From: an uncultured Porphyromonadaceae bacterium
GTDB taxonomy: Bacteria > Bacteroidota > Bacteroidia > Bacteroidales > Muribaculaceae
Assembly (NCBI GenBank): GCA_900548875.1
Contig: URMA01000004.1
Span: forward strand, 6,488-70,487
Direction of reading: 5' to 3'
DNA: 64,000 nt
A model generated the notes under the pieces. The model did not search any database and had not been told where the DNA came from. It saw nothing but the letters and a program-made list of their open reading frames with translations. Below, piece by piece: positions 3,627 through 50,209 of this stretch. A program made the position numbers and the translations under genes. Within the stretch, counting starts at the first letter, position 1. Every line of letters starts with the position of its first letter.

Positions 3627-4838
3627 ATGTTCCGCCTCCCTCTTTTCACCATTTTGTGTTTTTTGGAAATTATGTTTAAAACTGCATTTATAAATTCACT
3701 GAAACGCGGCGTGCGCAAGCTCACGGAACGGCGGCTATACATTTTCGCGATGGTAGTCATTCCCCTCTTCGTGACCTTCTTCCTGCTCGGACTGATGAAA
3801 AACGGCCTGCCGAACCACATCCCGACTGCCATTGTCGACCTCGACAATTCGACAGCTTCGCGCGAAGTGGTACGCACCCTCCACAGTTCGGTGGAAGTGG
3901 ACCTCAACCACAAGGTGAACAGCTATGTCGAAGCCTACGAACTGATGCAGAAAGGGGAAATCTACGGATTCTTCATCATTCCCCACAACTTCATGCGGGA
4001 TGCCATGTCGGGACGGGAACCACAGATTGCCTACTACACCAACAGCACGTTCTACGTTCCCGGCTCACTGCTCTACCGCAGTCTGCGCACCACCTCCACA
4101 CTTACTTCGGCTTCCATTGTCAAAGCCTATCTGGTAAGTTCGGGAGCTACCGAGAAGCAGGCGATGGACCTGCTGCAACCGGTTCAACTGCTGACAAATC
4201 CGGTGCACAACCCGTGGACGAACTACTCCATATATCTGGTCAATTCGTTTGCCCCCTGTGCACTGGCACTGATGATACTGCTCGTCACCATATTCAGTAT
4301 CTGCCACGAAGAAAAGATGGGCACCTCACGCGAATGGCTGAAAACGGCCGACGGCTCGATGTATGTGGCTCTGCTGGGCAAACTGCTGCCGCAGACGCTT
4401 ATTTTCGCCACCGTAGGATTTCTGATTCAGTCCATCCTCTACGGCTATTGCCATTACCCGCTCAACTGCAACCCGTGGAACATGATTGGCGCAATGATTC
4501 TGTTCGTGATGGCCACCCAGGCATTCGGAGTGATGATTGCCGGCGTCATGCCCAACCTTCGTTTGGGACTGAGCATCGCTTCGCTCATCGGCATCCTGTC
4601 GTTCTCCGTCGGTGCATTCTCGTTTCCGCTGGAAGACATGTACAGCCCGATTGCCATATTCGCCTACATTCTCCCGGTGCGCTACTACTTTTTGATTTAT
4701 GTGGACCAGGCTCTCAACGGATTCCCCATCTACTTCTCCCGCTTCTACTATGCCGCCCTGCTCGCATTCCTGCTGCTTCCGGCACTGGTGTTGAAACGCT
4801 TGAAGAAAGCCAACATGAATCCGGTCTATGTGCCTTAA
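3627..4838 (+). CDS. ABC-2 type transporter permease (YbhS/YhhJ-like); the start could instead be the internal Met at 3672
   Basis: A large N-terminal periplasmic domain is followed by a 6-TM ABC-2 permease core. The gene sits directly downstream of HlyD. Confidence 0.75.
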   Translation: MFRLPLFTILCFLEIMFKTAFINSLKRGVRKLTERRLYIFAMVVIPLFVTFFLLGLMKNGLPNHIPTAIVDLDNSTASREVVRTLHSSVEVDLNHKVNSYVEAYELMQKGEIYGFFIIPHNFMRDAMSGREPQIAYYTNSTFYVPGSLLYRSLRTTSTLTSASIVKAYLVSSGATEKQAMDLLQPVQLLTNPVHNPWTNYSIYLVNSFAPCALALMILLVTIFSICHEEKMGTSREWLKTADGSMYVALLGKLLPQTLIFATVGFLIQSILYGYCHYPLNCNPWNMIGAMILFVMATQAFGVMIAGVMPNLRLGLSIASLIGILSFSVGAFSFPLEDMYSPIAIFAYILPVRYYFLIYVDQALNGFPIYFSRFYYAALLAFLLLPALVLKRLKKANMNPVYVP

Positions 4839-23234: not shown

Positions 23235-23786
23235 ATGGCAATTATACTGAATGACAGCTTCGAGGAAGACGAGTCGAAGCAGACGGAAACGGAGCCTTCA
23301 CCACAGAAGGACGAGCCGGAAAAGAAAGGGAATGATGCCGACGACAACGAGGACGACATATATATCCGCCCCACATCGAAACGAAGACGCGGAAAAACAA
23401 TCATCACGGTGCTCATCACTGCAGCTGTCGTTCTGGCCGGAGTTTTCATCTACGATGCCTTTTTCAGGGAAATCGTGAAGGACGGATGCGTTCGGGGATA
23501 TATCCTGAAAATCGAACAGGCCAACAACACGTTCGATTCCTACGAAGCTGTAATGGTGCTCGACTATCCGCAGGAAATAAACGACAGCACCACGCTCATT
23601 TTCAACTTTTCCACACAAGACTACGAGACGGCAAAAAAGCTCTACCGCTCGATGAAAAGCGACAGCCTGGTGGTACTGAACTACAAACGGTACAACAACC
23701 GCGTATTCTGGAGAGGGAAAACCAATGTCATTGCCTTTAAAGCCGAGTGCGTAAAGCCGACCCCCAAGTCAAGAAAAAAGAACTGA
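23235..23786 (+). CDS. Hypothetical protein with an acidic disordered N-terminus, one TM helix and a C-terminal globular domain
   Basis: This is an ORF-only call. It is co-directional with the preceding gene and starts 16 nt after it. Confidence 0.4.
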   Translation: MAIILNDSFEEDESKQTETEPSPQKDEPEKKGNDADDNEDDIYIRPTSKRRRGKTIITVLITAAVVLAGVFIYDAFFREIVKDGCVRGYILKIEQANNTFDSYEAVMVLDYPQEINDSTTLIFNFSTQDYETAKKLYRSMKSDSLVVLNYKRYNNRVFWRGKTNVIAFKAECVKPTPKSRKKN

Positions 23787-23789
23787 CGT

Positions 23790-25630
23790 ATAAAAATACA
23801 ATAGGAGCAACACTTCGTATTGCCCCTATCATTATCAAGTGCTAAGCACTGACATAACTTCCCCCTGTTTCCCAACAGAGAAAAGGGTTGATATAATAGT
23901 GATTGGTTTTGTTACCCTAAATTAATCCTTTTTATAATATTGAACAAGCATACACCTGTTTTTTTACGAAAAAATACAGAAAGCATAGACTAAATCAAGA
24001 AAAAAGTTAGAAAAACCACACCGTCCGAAGAACACGACAAAGCCGCCGGGCAATTTCCACCAAGATTCCATATCCACGCTGACAATGACGTCACAAAGCA
24101 GGCAGACGTTCCGGCCCCCAATATTTCTAACATACGGCAAAAATCATTAGCAATAAATATTCAAGAATAACAATATAAAATACAGTCACGTTTTCCACAA
24201 TCAAGCAAGCGAAAAAGAAAAAAGCCGATCGACTCTTCGACCGGATTTAATTCTTTGTTGCTTACAAGAAGCAACTCTTTTTACAAACCTAACATAAAAC
24301 CATTTTTACACTGCATTACGTTTCACAACGGAATGAGTATTTAATACTCCATATTTATTTTCGTAGTGTTAACCATTATTGAAAGTGTTATCTTAACTTT
24401 CACATCACAAAGGTACAACGAAAAACAAGCGTGTGTATGCTCATATAAATAAAAATATAAACTAATATCAGGTAAATATAATATTAATATATTGTAATAC
24501 AATTATTTATTATTATAGTAGAGCCAATCAAATATAAATAATTTTATAAGTATAATAGGGATATAAAACAAGAGGAAATAAGGGAATCTGACGCAGAGGA
24601 GTTAAGTGTTCTTATCATTCATTACCTGTAAGGATCTGCACCGGCCCGAAGAACTATTTTCATCCACATGAAAGGGCATATCCGGCTGACAACGGACAGA
24701 AACATTCACCTGCCCTACTCCCGACAGTTCTGCCACCACACCCAAGCAGCAATGGCCAGAAAACAAAAAAGCTCATCATAAGATGAACTTCAATTGCAGT
24801 TGCCAAAGCAACTTTTTACAAACCTAACATAAAACCATTTTTTCAAATTCATATGCCGTTTCACAACGGCATATAAGAACTATGATACTCCATATAGTGT
24901 TTAACCATTATCAAATCTTTCGATTTGACATTACAAAGATATACCCCATTTTCTCAAATTATACCACCCCATAAATAGCGATATAAGCATTTAAGGCAGA
25001 GATATAAGTACATTCATTTGTCATTCAGATATTTGCGCACAGATAACATAGGGAACAAATATAAATCATTTCACAGCATAACATAATATACCAAGGTAAA
25101 TTGCAATCGATTTCACCCGCCCGGCACCTCGAACTTCCGTGACATCAGCGGACTCCTGGGAGGTAAATTGTAACCGATTTTGCCCGCCAGGCATTATCCA
25201 ACGAGCCCTCCCCCAAGAACGTAGCAGACAGACAAAATAAAAAAGCTCACCAACAAGGATGAGCTTTTGTTTCTTTGTTGCTTACAAGAAGCAACTTTTT
25301 TACAAACCTAACATAAAACCATTAAAGAAATTACTTTCCGTTTCACAACGTCCGAGTAATTAAAAATACTCCATATATCGTAGTGTTTAACCATTATCAG
25401 ATTTTGTCAAGAACAGCTCTTTGTTTTTGACACTACAAAGTTAAGACGATTTCCAACGGATTAAACCACTACATCAATATAAATATAAATAGTTTACGGT
25501 AATATATAAACATATTACTACTGATATGCAATATATTACACTATAATCAGGACAAGATAAATATAAATAAAAATATCAAATCATACAGCTATAAACAAAA
25601 CTGCTCAAACATCATTAAAGGCCATTATTT
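23790..25630. repeat. ORF-free AT-rich region containing three tandem paralogous ~0.5 kb units. Each unit ends in a double hairpin terminator and a conserved ~130 bp module.
   Basis: The conserved module is ..ttgttgcttacaagaagcaac(t)cttttt acaaacctaacataaaaccat ... cgtttcacaacgg ... atactccatat ... gtgtttaaccattat.. It recurs at ~24.25, ~24.79 and ~25.27 kb. Each copy is preceded by a second hairpin (aagctca..tgagctt type) and by a ~100 bp GC-richer block. Confidence 0.6.
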
Positions 25631-27198
25631 CAATCAATCACCCCGATTTTCATGATCTGTTTCTCAAAATTTTCGCGGTCAATGGCCTTGTTTCGCATCT
25701 TATTTCGATAGGCGTAAACCGTGTTTACCGAATATTTGAGGAATTCGGCAATCTTCGTATTGTCATCAAGCCCCATACGATGCAGCGCGTAAATACGCAG
25801 TTCAGCCGTCAGCATGCCCAATTCCGGTACGACAATACGTTCCTCCGGTCTTAACAGCGCATTGACATCATCGACAAAAGTAGTGTAAATTTTCAGAAAG
25901 GCATTGTCAAATTCCCGATAAAAGCCACGATGCTGTTCATCGGAAAAGCGTGCAGACTTCGTCATTTTCAGCAAATCCTCCACCTGCCCGGATACAAGTT
26001 TCCGATTGACAAGTTTCGTAAACGAATCCAGACGTTTCATATAGACGGAGCTCAATTCAAGGAATTGTCCCATATATTCGTCTTTCGCCACGTTGGCATC
26101 ATGAAGCTTCTTTCGGTCCGTAGACAGTTTTCGCATCTGCTTGACAAGGAAAAACACGGTAATCAGCAAACCAATCAGCAACAGACTGACAATCACTATA
26201 TAGGCTACCAACAAATTTTCATGCGACTTGACCTCTGCCCGATGAGCGCCTTCGATAACCGGCAACATGCGGGAAGCATTGTAGACACGCACCTGCGCAT
26301 TACAGAAGGCAGCATCCTCAATTGAGGAAAAAATGTAGCGATAGGCACGCTCAATGTCGCCCTTGTCGTAAACCAACATCGATAATTCGTACATCGACTG
26401 ATTTTCCTTGACAGAACACTGCAAATCGGAAATAGCGGAAAGCGCATAAAACTTCATACTCTCGTCCGTATTGCCTTCAGCATTGAGAGTGGAGGCCAAC
26501 AGACCTGCGGCAATGGCATATTCATTGCTGGTTTCCGGCAATTCGGACAATAAATCACCCAAAACGAGTTTAGCCGACACATTCTTTTTATCCCATAAAG
26601 CCTGCTCAGCCTCATACAGACGGCGCGTAATCGACCCTTCCGGCAAGGAAGCAATCCACTCCTTACGCAATTGATTGGTCGTATTATAATAATGACTGTA
26701 ATAAATACTTCCACGGTTAATGGAATTCAAGGCGAAGGAATAAATGCGATAGCCGCATTCATAATAGGCGGAATGCAAAGAATCGGGCAACTGGCTGAAA
26801 TCAATGGAATTATATTCCGAAGAGACCTCCGAATAAAAGCCCACAATCATTTCCGGACGAAGCCGTTTCAATTTAAGATGAATCGCCTTGCCGGGATTGC
26901 CGAGTGTATCGGCCACGCCGATAGCCTGCGAATAATAATAGACAGCGGAATCGGCCTTGAACAGCGTGAATTCATCGCCCAACTTTTCAAGACAGACCAA
27001 TTGCGCAGACTTGTCAGAACCCGCACGGTTCAAAATTGTCTTCAAACTGTCGATACGGGCATATTTCGCCTTGTCAAAAATGTTTTTTTGGGCAATCATC
27101 TTGTCCAGACGCTGTATTTCAGGCAAATTCGCCGAAGCACTGAACACACCGAGGACAGCAGATAACAGGGTTAGAATAATGGTTAAACGTTTAGGCAT
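25630..27198 (-). CDS. Membrane-anchored TPR-like sensor/regulator with C-terminal HTH (Bacteroidetes DUF6377-like family)
   Basis: The order is signal peptide, ~300 aa TPR-like periplasmic domain, one TM helix (VAYIVIVSLLLIGLLITVFFLV), a cytoplasmic coiled coil, then a C-terminal HTH (..KYSVNTVYAYRNKMRNKA..). Confidence 0.6.
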   Translation of the reverse strand: MPKRLTIILTLLSAVLGVFSASANLPEIQRLDKMIAQKNIFDKAKYARIDSLKTILNRAGSDKSAQLVCLEKLGDEFTLFKADSAVYYYSQAIGVADTLGNPGKAIHLKLKRLRPEMIVGFYSEVSSEYNSIDFSQLPDSLHSAYYECGYRIYSFALNSINRGSIYYSHYYNTTNQLRKEWIASLPEGSITRRLYEAEQALWDKKNVSAKLVLGDLLSELPETSNEYAIAAGLLASTLNAEGNTDESMKFYALSAISDLQCSVKENQSMYELSMLVYDKGDIERAYRYIFSSIEDAAFCNAQVRVYNASRMLPVIEGAHRAEVKSHENLLVAYIVIVSLLLIGLLITVFFLVKQMRKLSTDRKKLHDANVAKDEYMGQFLELSSVYMKRLDSFTKLVNRKLVSGQVEDLLKMTKSARFSDEQHRGFYREFDNAFLKIYTTFVDDVNALLRPEERIVVPELGMLTAELRIYALHRMGLDDNTKIAEFLKYSVNTVYAYRNKMRNKAIDRENFEKQIMKIGVID

Positions 27199-27346
27199 TG
27201 TAAAAAAATATAATTCAGTTTCAAAGATAATTAATTTGGCGACAACTAAATAAGTTTCGTAAATATAAATGCAAGAATTAACTAAAAAACCTGCCGAACA
27301 GAGGTCGAAAACATTTTTTCAGATAGGATTCAAATGAGGATGACAA

Positions 27347-37239: not shown

Positions 37240-37960
37240 TATCTTTGCCAGAAAGAACAAAAAAACGGATAAGAGCATCCTCAAATTTATGTCTTTATGT
37301 TCTTCTGTCGGAGAAATTTATTTTTGACAAAAGAACACAAGAACAGAAATCATATTTTTATAGACACCTGACACACAACACCTTCAACATTATAAAAATT
37401 TTGTCCTTTTGTTCTTCTGTCCCCAAAAACTCTCCCACCAGCACAGAAGAACACTCTAACGCATTTTATTTTTGACAGAAGAACAGAAAGACATATTTTG
37501 AAAGCGCTGCCAAGTGGCGTCCTCCACTTAGAAAGAGGAGGTGGGCGGAGCCCGGAGGAGTATGAACGCCAACATTGGGTTGGAGATTAGCGTTTGTAAA
37601 CTGTAAATCCTTGGAAAATGTTCATGCTCCCCAGTCTGTGTTCATTCCCCTCAGTCGCAAGCGACGGCTCCCCTATCTTAGGTGAGCACAGGCTAACGCG
37701 TTGATTATCTTATATTTGATTTTTCGACAGAAGAACACAAGAACAGAAATCATATTTTTATAAGAGCTTGACACATAGCACTTTCAGCATCATAAAAATT
37801 TTGTCCTTTTGTTCTTCTGTCAAAAAAACTCCCCCATCAACGACCTGAAAACTGCGTTTTCGTTTGCCTCTCCGCTCTGCTTTTCGTATCTTTGGATAAG
37901 ATTGGAGGCGGCTCGGGATAAAAAATATCTGAAACAAGTTTCAATATTTTATTCTCCGCT
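37240..37960. repeat. Cluster of MITE-like modules (GACAGAAGAACA family) immediately 3' of tRNA-Pro. It includes a duplicated ~110 bp unit (37.32-37.43 and 37.72-37.83 kb) and a ~200 bp GC-richer module (37.49-37.70 kb).
   Basis: Repeated blocks are tttttgacaaaagaacacaagaacagaaatcatatttttata...ttttgtccttttgttcttctgtc. The module gaaagcgctgccaagtggcgtcctcc...ttaggtgagcacaggctaacgcg has an inverted partial copy at 42.38-42.47 kb. Confidence 0.6.
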
Positions 37961-45240: not shown

Positions 45241-45366
45241 GAAATTAAGTATTAACCCTGTGGAAAAATTTGGCTGCTTGCAACCACATTAAAAAATGCT
45301 AAAACTGCAAATCCCCCTCAGATTTCCAGCCAATTTAGCTTTTCCACTTTAAAACAAAATGGAAAG

Positions 45367-46656
45367 ATGAACTATCTATTCACATCGGAATCGGTGTCGG
45401 AAGGACACCCTGACAAAGTGGCGGATCAAATTTCTGACGCCATTCTTGACAAACTGCTTGCTTATGACCCGGAATCGAAGGTTGCGTGCGAAACGCTCGT
45501 GACTACGGGACAGGTTGTAATTGCCGGCGAAGTGAAATCGGAAGCCTACATCGACATGATGGACACGGCCCGCAGCGTAATCAACCGTATCGGCTACAAC
45601 AAGAGCGAATACAAATTCGACGGCGAATCGTGCGGCGTTCTGCTGGCTATCCACGAACAGTCGAAGGACATCAACCGGGGCGTTGACCGTGGAAACAGGG
45701 AAGACCAAGGAGCCGGCGACCAAGGCATGATGTTCGGTTATGCCTGCAACGAAACGGAAAACTACATGCCGCTGACGCTCGACCTGGCTCATGCCATCCT
45801 CCGCGAACTTGCCGCTATCCGCCGCGAAGGCAAGGTGATGACCTATCTGCGCCCTGACTCAAAAAGTCAGGTGACGGTGGAATACGACGAGCACAACAAG
45901 CCGGTGCGTGTTCACACCATCGTTGTCAGCACACAGCACGACGACTTTATCCAACCGGCCGACAACTCTGACGCCGCTCAGGCGGAAGCCGACCGACAAA
46001 TGGTGGACGTCATCTACAACGACGTCAAGAACATCCTGCTGCCGCGCATCATCCGGACATTGCCCAAACGCATACAGAACATGTTCGACGACCAACTGAT
46101 TCTTCACGTGAATCCTACTGGAAAATTCGTTATCGGCGGACCGAACGGCGACACGGGCCTTACCGGACGTAAAATCATCGTTGATACTTACGGAGGCCGC
46201 GGTGCTCACGGCGGCGGTGCCTTCTCGGGAAAAGACCCTTCGAAGGTGGACCGCTCGGCAGCCTACGCCACCCGACATATTGCGAAAAACATCGTTGCAG
46301 CCGGTCTGGCCGACGAAGCTCTCGTGCAGGTGGCCTACGCCATCGGTGTTGCCCAACCGGTCAGCCTGTGCGTAAACACCTACGGAACAGCGAAAGTCAA
46401 CCTGTCGGATGCAGAAATTTCCGCCCGTATCAGCCAACTGTTCGACATGCGTCCGGCAGCTATCGAGGAACGCCTCGGACTGCGCCAGCCTATCTACGAA
46501 GAAACGGCCGCCTACGGACACATGGGACGCAAGCCGGAAGTGATCGACAAGCACTTCAAGTCGTTCTACAACGGCGACAAGGTTGTCAGAGTAGAACTTT
46601 TCAGCTGGGAAAAGCTCGACTATGTCGACAAAATCCGCAAAGCATTCGGACTGTAA
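45367..46656 (+). CDS. metK: S-adenosylmethionine synthetase
   Basis: The N-terminus is ..[24 protein letters not shown]... The GAGDQG motif and the ..[22 protein letters not shown].. signature are present. Length is 429 aa. Confidence 0.95.
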
Positions 46657-48802: not shown

Positions 48803-50209
48803 CTACGCCGTCTGCACGATGCGCAGGTGGGCTTTCGGGTAGCGGAGGGTCATGCAGCTGGCTTCGGTCAGCACAATGGCGTCGGTATTACGCACGCCGG
48901 CCGACTTCAGGTTGAGCTCCTCGGTCGAGAACGGAATATGGCTGTATTTCTGCAAATATTCCGGGTCGATAATCATACCGTTGTTTTCCATTCCGCATTC
49001 GTCGAACACCTCCGACAACAGTACATAGAGCTTGCCGAACTTCGAACGGATTTCCGAGAAGTCGATACCCCATTTCACGATATCCTCACCGGCCATCACC
49101 ACTTTCGTGGAGTCCAGTTTGTTGAGCTGTTCAATCAGCCCCGAACCGCCGATGAGCACCTTACGCTTGTTGCCGGCATTGCCCGTGAACGCCTGCCGCA
49201 TCATGGAAATGACGGCATCCTGATTCAATTCACCCGACTTGTAGGTAAATTCGCCGCCGGCCTGTCCCCAGATTCCGCCCGTCAGGAATATTTCCTCATG
49301 CTTGGTCTGATCCTCCACACGGCCCTTGACACCGAAAAGGAAGTTTTTCTCCATGCCCAGACGCATGTCGTAGACCGCCGCTTCCTCCTGGTCGCTGAAC
49401 GTCCACCCCACTTCCTTGTTGGCGATTTTTTGCAGGGTGCTCTGTTCGATCTGCATCTTGAAAATCTGGCAATAGTTCTGGCACTTTACCGGCAACGCTT
49501 CGAACTGCGCCGTCTGCACATCCAATTCTCCGGCGGCACGCCCCATTCTCACGAGCATCGTTCCCGTCGGTATGGTCGGAATACAGTTGGTGAATCCGTC
49601 GGCAGTCTTGCCGTTGGGAGTGACGGCCTCCAAATAGTTTTCACTGGTGGATTTCGACACGACGTACAGCACCAAATCCTGCGATGACTGCGTCACACCG
49701 TCGGGCTCAAAGCCGCGCACGCCACGCACCAACAGCGTTTCCGACTCTTCAAACAAGTCGATATTGTCCACCGTCAGGCGTGCCCGCTGGAAACGCTTGT
49801 CGCCCGTCGTGTCGACACCCGTAAATTCGGAAGTGGTGAGTGCCGATGTCGGACGGGTATCCACCGAATAATAGTCGACCACCATGCTTCCGCTGCGTTT
49901 CGCACCCGCCCAACGCGACAACTGGTCGATAGGCGTAGCCATCGGACGAATCTTGACGATACGGCGGTCGATTTCGTTCAGCAGCAGTTCGGGCGATTCA
50001 CGCTGCGCAAGGGCACGCGTCAGGGGTTCATCCGTCACATGCTTTCCTCCGGCCACACCCGGAATGACAGCCATCGCAAGCGACAGGCCCGAAGAATCGT
50101 AGAACACAAGCACGCCCACCGCCAACAGCACCAGCAGAAACAATAGTGTTTCGGGGCAGAGCAGACGGTCCATCAGTTGTTGAAATTTTTCTTTCGTTGT
50201 GTTTTTCAT
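48803..50209 (-). CDS. Hypothetical membrane-anchored protein (N-terminal cytoplasmic tail + 1 TM + large periplasmic domain)
   Basis: This is an ORF-only call. It is the last gene of a co-directional cluster with the TPR protein and OMP upstream. Confidence 0.45.
   Translation of the reverse strand: MKNTTKEKFQQLMDRLLCPETLLFLLVLLAVGVLVFYDSSGLSLAMAVIPGVAGGKHVTDEPLTRALAQRESPELLLNEIDRRIVKIRPMATPIDQLSRWAGAKRSGSMVVDYYSVDTRPTSALTTSEFTGVDTTGDKRFQRARLTVDNIDLFEESETLLVRGVRGFEPDGVTQSSQDLVLYVVSKSTSENYLEAVTPNGKTADGFTNCIPTIPTGTMLVRMGRAAGELDVQTAQFEALPVKCQNYCQIFKMQIEQSTLQKIANKEVGWTFSDQEEAAVYDMRLGMEKNFLFGVKGRVEDQTKHEEIFLTGGIWGQAGGEFTYKSGELNQDAVISMMRQAFTGNAGNKRKVLIGGSGLIEQLNKLDSTKVVMAGEDIVKWGIDFSEIRSKFGKLYVLLSEVFDECGMENNGMIIDPEYLQKYSHIPFSTEELNLKSAGVRNTDAIVLTEASCMTLRYPKAHLRIVQTA

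Follow-up and report, generated by a model that had tools for sequence, protein, structure and literature searches.

Groups of sibling small RNAs (sRNAs) that answer to a dedicated regulator and feed back on it are known from Vibrio (Qrr1-5 with LuxO) and from enterobacteria (OmrA and OmrB with OmpR), and in the pairs SgrR/SgrS, OxyR/OxyS, and GcvA/GcvB the gene for a transcription factor lies adjacent to its sRNA target. In Bacteroidota, where Shine-Dalgarno regions are largely lacking, the regulation of glycan use by gut members is seen mainly as transcriptional control of polysaccharide utilization loci (PULs) by SusR-like proteins, hybrid two-component systems, and extracytoplasmic function (ECF) sigma factors. 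To our knowledge, sRNA layers of this regulation (GibS, FopS, and SrcF) are recent and come only from cultured Bacteroides and Segatella. Here we analyze positions 23,790 to 25,630 of a 64,000-nucleotide stretch of contig URMA01000004.1, from an uncultured Muribaculaceae bacterium (assembly GCA_900548875.1); the whole 64-kb stretch is called the window below. In our assessment (probability of roughly 0.65), this segment carries one trans-acting sRNA gene in three tandem paralogous copies, old and diverged, which are encoded on the minus strand and co-oriented with a SusR-family regulator gene located upstream. The RNA is a new sRNA family in a known regulatory design, in which an sRNA has its own regulator and probably feeds back on it; the type of regulator partner is new.

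The locus resembles the Qrr/LuxO and OmrA/B/OmpR systems in having paralogous sRNA genes (in tandem in the case of OmrA/B) whose seed is identical while the rest has diverged, and in having a regulator-dependent promoter for each copy and an sRNA that pairs with the mRNA of its own activator, both of which are predictions here. It differs in phylum, sigma factor, and promoter type (TAnnTTTG here); the regulator, unlike LuxO and OmpR, is a one-component, membrane-spanning protein of the SusR type rather than a response regulator, and no Hfq is involved. Like SgrR/SgrS, OxyR/OxyS, and GcvA/GcvB, it displays a conserved adjacency between a regulator gene and an sRNA proposed to be under its control. 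Those pairs are divergently oriented, whereas here the regulator gene and the downstream sRNA have the same orientation, and the sRNA may share the end of the regulator's transcript. Further tandem or multicopy examples are LhrC1-5 of Listeria, with LisR, and the CiaR-dependent csRNAs of Streptococcus (PMC11697453). These are also sRNA arrays in which each copy has its own promoter and terminator and one envelope-sensing regulator serves them all, but they have no relation in sequence or structure to the present RNA, and their seeds are C- or UCCC-rich and target Shine-Dalgarno regions.

The gap between the convergent gene ends at 23786 (plus strand) and 25630 (minus strand) had been described as free of open reading frames (ORFs) of at least 60 aa, AT-rich, and made up of three tandem units of about 500 bp, all of which was confirmed. 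The longest ORFs lying within the gap are 58, 54, and 53 aa, the GC content is as low as 12% locally, and the start-to-start distances of the units are 535 and 484 bp. An identical 26-mer, read on the minus strand as ATGGTTTTATGTTAGGTTTGTAAAAA, occurs in all three units and nowhere else in the window, with a chance expectation of 0. The reported enrichment of hairpins followed by T tracts also held, with 10 terminator-like sites found versus 1.5 +/- 1.2 in shuffled sequences. Because of the three repeat units, the shared 26-mer, and the terminator enrichment, the observation made in this region is regarded as real.

Read on the minus strand, each unit comprises, in order, two YTATAT boxes, a TAnnTTTG promoter, an RNA of about 170 to 195 nt, and an intrinsic terminator (Table 1). 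TAnnTTTG, known as the -7 element of housekeeping promoters in Bacteroidota (PMC7366714), is invariant across the alignment of the three units and is separated from the conserved 5' hairpin by a fixed 8 nt in the homologues. By sequence prediction, this promoter and a minus-strand terminator delimit a short noncoding transcript in all three units and in all homologues, and the terminator stem (P4) has compensatory changes at all six of its pairs across homologues. A covariance model (R1), built from an alignment of 25 copies, finds exactly three copies in the window. The span given for unit 3 extends from the predicted start site (about 25428) to the U tract after the terminator, and the RNA of unit 2 has a short 5' hairpin (AAAUC-GAAA-GAUUU) and a shortened P3 helix. 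The z-scores of the folds are -1.85 for unit 3, -5.05 for unit 2 (-48.2 kcal/mol), and -2.88 for unit 1.

Table 1. Coordinates of the sRNA array and of associated features in the window.
Feature	Position	Strand	Remarks
sRNA gene, unit 3	25236..25428	-	~193 nt; nearest regulator; model R1 158.8 bits, E = 5e-29
sRNA gene, unit 2	24760..24926	-	~167 nt; model R1 118.6 bits, E = 5e-21
sRNA gene, unit 1	24215..24400	-	~186 nt; model R1 149 bits, E = 5e-27
-7 promoter box, unit 3	25436-25443	-	TAACTTTG
-7 promoter box, unit 2	24934-24941	-	TATCTTTG
-7 promoter box, unit 1	24408-24415	-	TACCTTTG
Terminator stem P4, unit 3	25241-25268	-	followed by UUUUUUAUUUU
Terminator stem P4, unit 2	24768-24791	-	terminator scan
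Terminator stem P4, unit 1	24225-24244	-	terminator scan
Invariant 26-mer of ss2 (putative seed), unit 3	25297-25322	-	AUGGUUUUAUGUUAGGUUUGUAAAAA
Invariant 26-mer of ss2, unit 2	24813-24838	-	exact copy of unit 3
Invariant 26-mer of ss2, unit 1	24278-24303	-	exact copy of unit 3
Proximal box, unit 3	25482-25488	-	TTATATT; start -60
Proximal box, unit 2	24980-24986	-	equivalent of unit 3 box
Proximal box, unit 1	24454-24460	-	equivalent of unit 3 box
Distal box, unit 3	25560-25566	-	TTATATT; start -138
Distal box, unit 2	25058-25064	-	equivalent of unit 3 box
Distal box, unit 1	24531-24537	-	equivalent of unit 3 box
SusR-family regulator gene	25630..27198	-	522 aa; directly upstream of RNA array, same strand
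Predicted sRNA target site	27175..27208	-	-10 to +24 around regulator start codon (27198-27196)
GC-richer block downstream of unit 1	23985-24150		inter-gene filler, 45-52% GC
GC-richer block	24585-24760		inter-gene filler, 45-52% GC; holds 37-codon ORF
GC-richer block	25085-25232		inter-gene filler, 45-52% GC
Fourth conserved structured block	23790..23945	-	three hairpins including a terminator; not a member of the RNA family

The preliminary description had placed the units on the plus strand, each beginning with a GC-richer block and continuing with two terminators and a module of about 130 bp, and neither this orientation nor this phasing holds. The T6 run that directly follows a hairpin belongs to the minus strand in all three units, and the apparent double terminator of the plus strand represents helices P3 and P4 of the minus-strand RNA in reverse complement, that is, an internal hairpin and the terminator. 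The 130-bp module and the two hairpins form a single transcript, of which the module, with the hairpin ccgtt-tcac-aacgg that was correctly noted and is found in every unit, makes up the 5' two-thirds; the GC-richer block is intergenic. The AT-rich sequences that had been taken for spacers hold the promoters and the positioned operator-like boxes. The recurring ATATAAATA motifs seen there are real and, on the minus strand, read as YTATAT boxes at fixed positions, 16 of which occur across the region on that strand and none on the plus strand. The choice of tandem paralogous sRNAs over peptide genes is supported by the conservation of the RNA, the covariation of its helices, and the absence of frame-conserved small ORFs. 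Linkage to the adjacent SusR-family gene and complementarity to the translation start of that gene had been missed.

Homologues of the RNA were found at about 100 loci in Bacteroidales genomes and human-gut metagenomes. A scan of one genome from each of 185,579 species (596 Gb), in which an exact 20-mer from the invariant stretch was required, gave 20 loci, 18 of them true. The true loci are in Bacteroidales metagenome-assembled genomes (MAGs) labeled Muribaculaceae, Candidatus Limisoma, Bacteroidales, or "Porphyromonadaceae/Prevotellaceae," and the organism of the window belongs to an uncultured Bacteroidales lineage represented only by MAGs and human-gut metagenomes. Three true copies beside the regulator are on contigs of MAGs labeled Eubacterium sp. 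CAG:180 (L006), Senegalimassilia sp. (L013), and "bacterium" (L014), labels that probably stem from binning contamination. The two remaining matches, in a Clostridia MAG and an Oscillospiraceae MAG (L002 6467-6486 and L016 2771-2790), have no other feature of the RNA, and their number is about that expected by chance for a 20-mer in 596 Gb.

All 18 loci have a common layout consisting of the promoter box, helix P1, a single-stranded stretch (ss1), helix P2, a second single-stranded stretch (ss2), helix P3, AAAGAAACAAAG, and the terminator P4. The ss1 stretch (AAUAAUGGUUAAACACUACGAUAU..AUGGAGUAUUAG) lies between the 5' hairpin P1 and P2, the apex of P2 is CGUUGNGAAACG, and P3 is GUUGCUU..AAGCAAC. 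Between P2 and P3, ss2 contains the invariant stretch AAUGGUUUUAUGUUAGGUUUGUAAA, which is unpaired in the consensus structure. The covariation analysis that had been suggested as a check was run on these homologues, and the compensatory changes found support the helices. In the 25-copy alignment, 93.2% of the cells in 31 pairs are standard, versus 36 to 52% when the partners are slid by 1 to 3 columns; compensatory changes occur in 17 pairs, and none of 500 shuffles reaches the observed covariation. A set of 33 distinct RNA sequences derived through the regulator protein, the alignment of which was fitted to model R1, gave 94.7% paired cells and 17 compensatory pairs. For the two sets together the values are 93 to 95% of cells paired versus 35 to 52% with partners slid. 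In the helices of the protein-derived set, G.U cells number 84 and A.C cells 11, an excess that settles the strand as minus independently of the promoter argument, and helix pairing is 94.7% when read on the minus strand versus 86.6% on the plus strand.

The three copies have positional orthologues in a sister species (L008), with identities of 87% for unit 3 and L008_a, 86% for unit 2 and L008_b, and 94% for unit 1 and L008_c. Paralogues are only 51 to 61% identical, compared with 86 to 94% for orthologues, and the seed is identical in all of them. Since orthologues are closer than paralogues, the triplication predates the split of the two species. Three tandem copies are found only in the clade of the window (L008 and L027-L033) and, separately, in L015. 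Model R1 gave no match at the distant SusR-like loci L021-L026, and the RNA family as defined is therefore limited to regulator orthologues of about 50% identity or more.

No described family was found that accounts for this RNA, and none of the Rfam 15 families, Bacteroides-1, Bacteroides-2, and Bacteroidales-1 included, reached its gathering threshold in the array. At the gathering threshold, Rfam 15 matched only a tRNA and a SAM-II riboswitch in the whole window, both elsewhere, and at E <= 10 only chance-level matches were obtained in 23600-25800, the best being Phe_leader (25.2 bits versus 55 required). A full-text literature search with the seed, its complement, and the ss1 motif gave no match, and no description of such an RNA was found in the searchable literature on DUF6377, SusR together with sRNA, FopS, SrcF, or Muribaculaceae sRNAs. 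FopS and GibS of Bacteroides thetaiotaomicron (PMC11697453, PMC7366714) are similar in being multicopy Bacteroidales sRNAs with sigma-ABfr promoters, a Rho-independent terminator, a long conserved single-stranded seed, a link to glycan utilization, and action at translation starts, which is predicted here. However, FopS consists of a 5' single-stranded stretch and one terminator hairpin, in contrast to the four helices and two internal single-stranded regions of the present RNA, and its 12 to 15 copies per genome are dispersed and not tied to a SusR-like gene, whereas the copies described here are in tandem beside one. The shared FopS R1 seed and the one-hairpin architecture that define the FopS/GibS group were not found in the RNA. 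The seed of the present RNA and its complement are absent from the text, oligonucleotides, and supplements of the FopS paper, in which the FopS R1 seed sequence itself is not readable.

The regulator encoded upstream of the array has a signal peptide, a periplasmic tetratricopeptide repeat (TPR) sensor, one transmembrane helix (about aa 329-350), and a C-terminal SusR_C DNA-binding domain; the signal peptide and the transmembrane helix were read from the sequence. Residues 258-484 match Pfam PF19904 (DUF6377/SusR_C) with E = 1.9e-74, and homologues carry PF28559 (TPR_SusR) and PF19904 (SusR_C). Judged by these domains, the protein is a member of the SusR family, with the same architecture as the regulator of the susA and susB-G genes (PMC3878776). 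Its score of 439.8 bits against NCBIfam NF058541 (SusR_regulator) is below the equivalog cutoff of 480 and does not support an identity as the starch/maltose regulator.

The linkage of the RNA to the regulator is obligate. In all 17 genome loci that could be tested, namely, those with upstream sequence, the RNA starts about 150 to 200 nt after a regulator homologue (50 to 88% identity) on the same strand. A metagenome scan with the regulator alignment gave 79 loci, 65 of which have at least 420 nt of downstream sequence, and the RNA is present in 64 of these 65. At the sole exception (L100), a truncated regulator ORF of 359 aa precedes another gene; this locus may be a pseudogene or a misassembly. 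The genes downstream of the RNA (NigD-like, cobalamin adenosyltransferase, UDP-GlcNAc 2-epimerase, polysaccharide export, and histidine kinase) show no relationship from one lineage to another, and in many cases, the window included, they are convergent; only the pair of regulator and RNA is conserved at the locus. No gene for a protein partner was found next to the locus. The known and predicted targets of SusR-like proteins are glycoside-hydrolase and susC/D operons (PMC3878776). In contrast to these regulons, the only conserved neighbor and operator-bearing target here is a noncoding RNA, and no PUL or susC gene that could be a candidate target is present in the 64-kb window.

The operator-like boxes are direct repeats that start at -60 and at -137 or -138 in the three units, and the distance from the distal to the proximal box is 77 to 78 bp in all three units, or about seven helical turns. 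Of 24 copies from different species, 22 have a YTATAT that begins at exactly -60, and 21 have a box at -135 to -138; conservation does not extend to the sequence that separates the two boxes. The composite arrangement of box, 76 to 78 bp, box, about 39 bp, and TAnnTTTG occurs three times on the two strands of the 64 kb, these being the three units. The SusR-like operators predicted in Bacteroides are direct repeats with centers 67 or 77 bp apart (PMC3878776), a spacing that is seen in all three units and most homologues, and the layout predicted for SusR, SusR2, SusR3, and SusR4 likewise has two direct repeats about 77 bp apart upstream of TAnnTTTG. We infer from these likenesses that the regulator targets the sRNA genes and that the boxes serve as SusR-family operators. 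A single match to a box plus promoter, at 37710-37760 on the plus strand, looks like chance and was rejected. Upstream of the predicted promoter of the regulator itself (TATCTTTG, 27222-27229) is a TTTATATT box at 27261-27270 (minus strand), whose start lies near -54, not at -60, and which is not accompanied by a second box at a distance of 77 bp.

Similar layouts are found at two of the distant loci. At L021 (5160-5296), TTATATT boxes 77 bp apart and a TATCTTTG promoter precede a gene of the GH97 alpha-glucosidase type, which adjoins a SusR-like gene of 42% identity (close to Bacteroides sp. CAG:189), and the arrangement provides independent support for the boxes as SusR-family operators. At L023 (4702-5130), two TTATATT boxes with the 77-bp spacing (starting at 4711 and 4788) and a TAnnTTTG promoter directly follow the stop codon of a homologue that is 40% identical and syntenic, with a divergent MatE gene as in the window. 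The boxes at L023 precede a different structured RNA of about 285 nt that ends in a terminator and to which model R1 is blind, which suggests that the module of sensor plus RNA is broader than one RNA family.

Both single-stranded regions of the RNA are complementary to the beginning of the regulator mRNA. A segment of ss1, AAUAAUGGUUAAAC, has a perfect 14-nt complement at 27175-27188 (minus strand), corresponding to codons 4 to 8 of the regulator. The ss2 stretch can form three paired blocks, of 10, 5, and 8 bp, with positions -10 to +24 of the mRNA, a duplex that encloses the start codon (-23 kcal/mol; z = -6.1 versus shuffled target), and the predicted 5' untranslated region (UTR) of the regulator is only about 16 nt long. 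These tests were restricted to the seed; unrestricted duplexes of the whole RNA were meaninglessly long. In a target scan that covered the window, the regulator start ranked first among 44 genes with -26.5 kcal/mol, compared with a mean of -12.1 +/- 3.5 and a next-best value of -19.3. Complementary sites in other lineages are found in the 5' UTR or the first codons of the regulator, at differing positions. Such complementarity was detected in L035 (ss1, z = -4.6), in L036 (ss2, P = 0.007), and in L096 and L093 (P ~0.04), and AACCAUUAU is the complementary site in L007/L034, L019, and L015. In silico, negative feedback on the regulator is thus well supported in this genome, but it does not extend to all lineages.

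A mechanism can be proposed from these features. The membrane-bound regulator would sense a glycan signal in the periplasm, bind the two boxes in dimeric form (the mode of binding predicted for SusR-like proteins), and activate each of the sRNA promoters. The presence of three copies might give a higher or graded dose of sRNA. The sRNA would act by base pairing through ss2 and ss1, and one of its targets would be the mRNA of the regulator itself, whose start codon would be masked by pairing from -10 to +24, with negative feedback as the result. The invariance of ss2 across genera would imply further conserved targets in trans or a protein partner.

Several points weigh against a trans-acting, regulator-dependent sRNA array. 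In the 25-copy alignment, the first 20 nt of ss2 do not vary, but this is partly built in, since this 20-mer was the exact search query; the 64 metagenome loci, which were reached through the protein and have RNAs scoring as high as 206 bits, support ss2 independently. The transcript start sites were predicted from the promoter motif alone. No clear terminator is present between the stop codon of the regulator and unit 3, and unit 3 could therefore also arise by read-through as a 3' UTR. The box spacing in one clade (L001, L006, L013, and L014) is 75 or 65 bp and not 77 bp, and the boxes are short and AT-rich, such that they could serve another factor. In L080, L083, and L086, complementarity to the regulator mRNA is lacking or not significant, and feedback pairing in the distant L023 module is not significant (P = 0.2). 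Because several lineages are without this complementarity, feedback cannot alone explain the invariance of ss2, and other conserved targets or a protein partner must exist behind it.

The sequences between the sRNA genes differ from them in conservation. In a footprint of the sister species L008, the regulator of which is 88% identical, and four relatives, the RNA genes have identities of at least 0.9, the AT-rich upstream parts 0.6 to 0.85, and the GC-richer blocks 0.44 to 0.54 with many indels. The elevated GC content of these blocks had been described correctly; their description as diverged versions of each other with a shared core was not borne out, since alignment scores were at chance level relative to shuffles (P = 0.05 to 0.34). 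As the least conserved segment in relatives, they are not part of the functional unit, and the idea that they are paralogous bodies was rejected. The block that follows unit 3 contains a direct repeat of 33 nt (85% identical; 25094-25126 and 25161-25193) that the sister species lacks, which points to a recent local duplication in fast-evolving filler. The 37-codon ORF reported at 24668-24781 is present, encodes a hydrophilic peptide, and sits in such a nonconserved block. No ORF common to the three units was found, and small-peptide readings of either strand were rejected because frames and lengths vary between copies. The ORF in ss1, for example, shifts in frame and length (MVKHYDI*, MVNTTKINMEY*, and MVKHYE*), which indicates conservation at the nucleotide level. 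The small ORF, hydrophobic in the case of a toxin, that a type I toxin-antitoxin or small-protein locus would keep in frame among its copies is likewise not found.

These observations bear on the alternative in which each unit is transcribed from the plus strand, as a GC-rich body with two terminators that encodes an sRNA or a tiny protein such as the 37-codon ORF. A T run does follow the P3 hairpin on the plus strand in all units, the P4 hairpin of unit 3 also has a T-rich tail on that strand, and the peptide FYKPNIKP is common to two ORFs of that strand, 29 and 34 aa long, in units 1 and 3. However, FYKPNIKP is merely the back-translation of the invariant 26-mer, its frame is closed in unit 2, and the start codons differ between units 1 and 3, which, together with the variation of ORFs between copies, led us to reject a peptide-coding reading. 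Furthermore, the GC-richer bodies lack mutual similarity and conservation, the 37-codon ORF is in the least conserved segment, the G.U excess fits the minus strand, and three conserved minus-strand promoters contrast with the lack of any plus-strand TAnnTTTG upstream, so that transcription from the plus strand seems highly improbable. Hardly credible at all is an origin of the region as nonfunctional repeat DNA, whether a decayed gene, a prophage remnant, or a mobile repeat, even though it is AT-rich, ORF-free, and repetitive and a phage capsid gene is encoded elsewhere in the window. Homologous regions keep the RNA structure, with compensatory changes across genera, which is the opposite of the decay that the preliminary description had named as grounds for dismissal; synteny with one gene family is fixed, no match was found in 2.9 million viral contigs, and inverted repeats typical of mobile elements were not found.

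A cis-acting element, either a triplicated 3' UTR or terminator region of the regulator or a leader or attenuator of the downstream gene, would fit the missing terminator after the regulator, and some lineages have a co-oriented gene 40 to 130 nt past the RNA terminator. Against this, every copy, including those internal to the array, keeps its own TAnnTTTG and pair of boxes, and the downstream genes are unrelated and often convergent; we consider such an element improbable. A more serious competitor, if still an unlikely one, is a minus-strand RNA that acts mainly as a protein-binding or decoy RNA, or as a dual-function RNA with translated mini-ORFs, rather than by antisense pairing. In the decoy version, an RNA-binding protein might be sequestered by the repeated single-stranded motifs AUGGUU, AUGGAG, AUGGUU, and UAGGUU, or these motifs might imitate a start of translation. 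Each RNA contains AAUAAUGGUU twice and has four (A/U)(U/A)GG motifs in an unpaired A/U-rich context, and a protein partner or a universal target would better explain the invariance of ss2 in lineages whose regulator mRNA shows no complementarity. The invariant AUG GUU UUA UGU UAG is a 4-codon ORF with a Bacteroidota-like start context, and multicopy sRNAs of Bacteroides bind the RNA recognition motif (RRM) protein RbpB (PMC11697453). However, the regulator start of this genome shows far more complementarity than chance would give, the neighborhood of the locus encodes no protein partner, and the ss1 ORF changes in frame and length between copies. An antisense sRNA array is the reading that we prefer.

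If this reading is extended, a subgroup of SusR-type proteins would have given up direct control of PULs and would act through a dedicated sRNA, here triplicated, on distant genes and on the shutoff of its own sensor. This extension is tentative, and we would give it somewhat less than even odds. If it is true, the sugar signal would be spread posttranscriptionally by a module that is common in abundant uncultured Bacteroidales of the human gut, and the distinct RNA at L023 would mean that the module is older and more varied than one RNA family. The locus is a specific and testable case of a SusR-type sensor with an sRNA as its conserved output, and it supplies a defined promoter and operator, a seed, and one predicted target, the mRNA of the sensor itself. 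Its carriers are frequent in human-gut metagenomes and have so far been without any RNA biology. The approximately 100 natural sequence variants can be used to define SusR-family operators, and ORF-free, AT-rich gaps beside orphan SusR-like genes merit a systematic search for RNAs.

The fourth structured block at the far end of the array is about 150 nt long and is 84 to 97% identical in relatives, all of which belong to the clade of the window. Its fold is more stable on the minus strand (-45.2 kcal/mol; z = -4.55) than on the plus strand (-31.5 kcal/mol) and includes a 12-bp stem, four pairs of which are G.U, as well as a terminator and its U run. Model R1 gives it only 22.9 bits, and it may be a distinct, unrelated sRNA. 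Only a near-consensus promoter, TAATTTAG, is present upstream of it, and its unpaired AACAAAACCA could, by complementarity, pair with the UGGUUUU core of the family.

Elsewhere in the window, the SAM-II (long-loop) riboswitch is found at 45254-45312 on the plus strand (63.1 bits), upstream of an S-adenosylmethionine synthetase gene (45367-46656), which is an ordinary, known arrangement. A gene at 48803-50209 on the minus strand matches the SU10 major capsid protein family (E = 4.5e-50) and is adjacent to an ORF of 758 aa with no Pfam match. This neighborhood is probably a phage-derived region or a prophage remnant.

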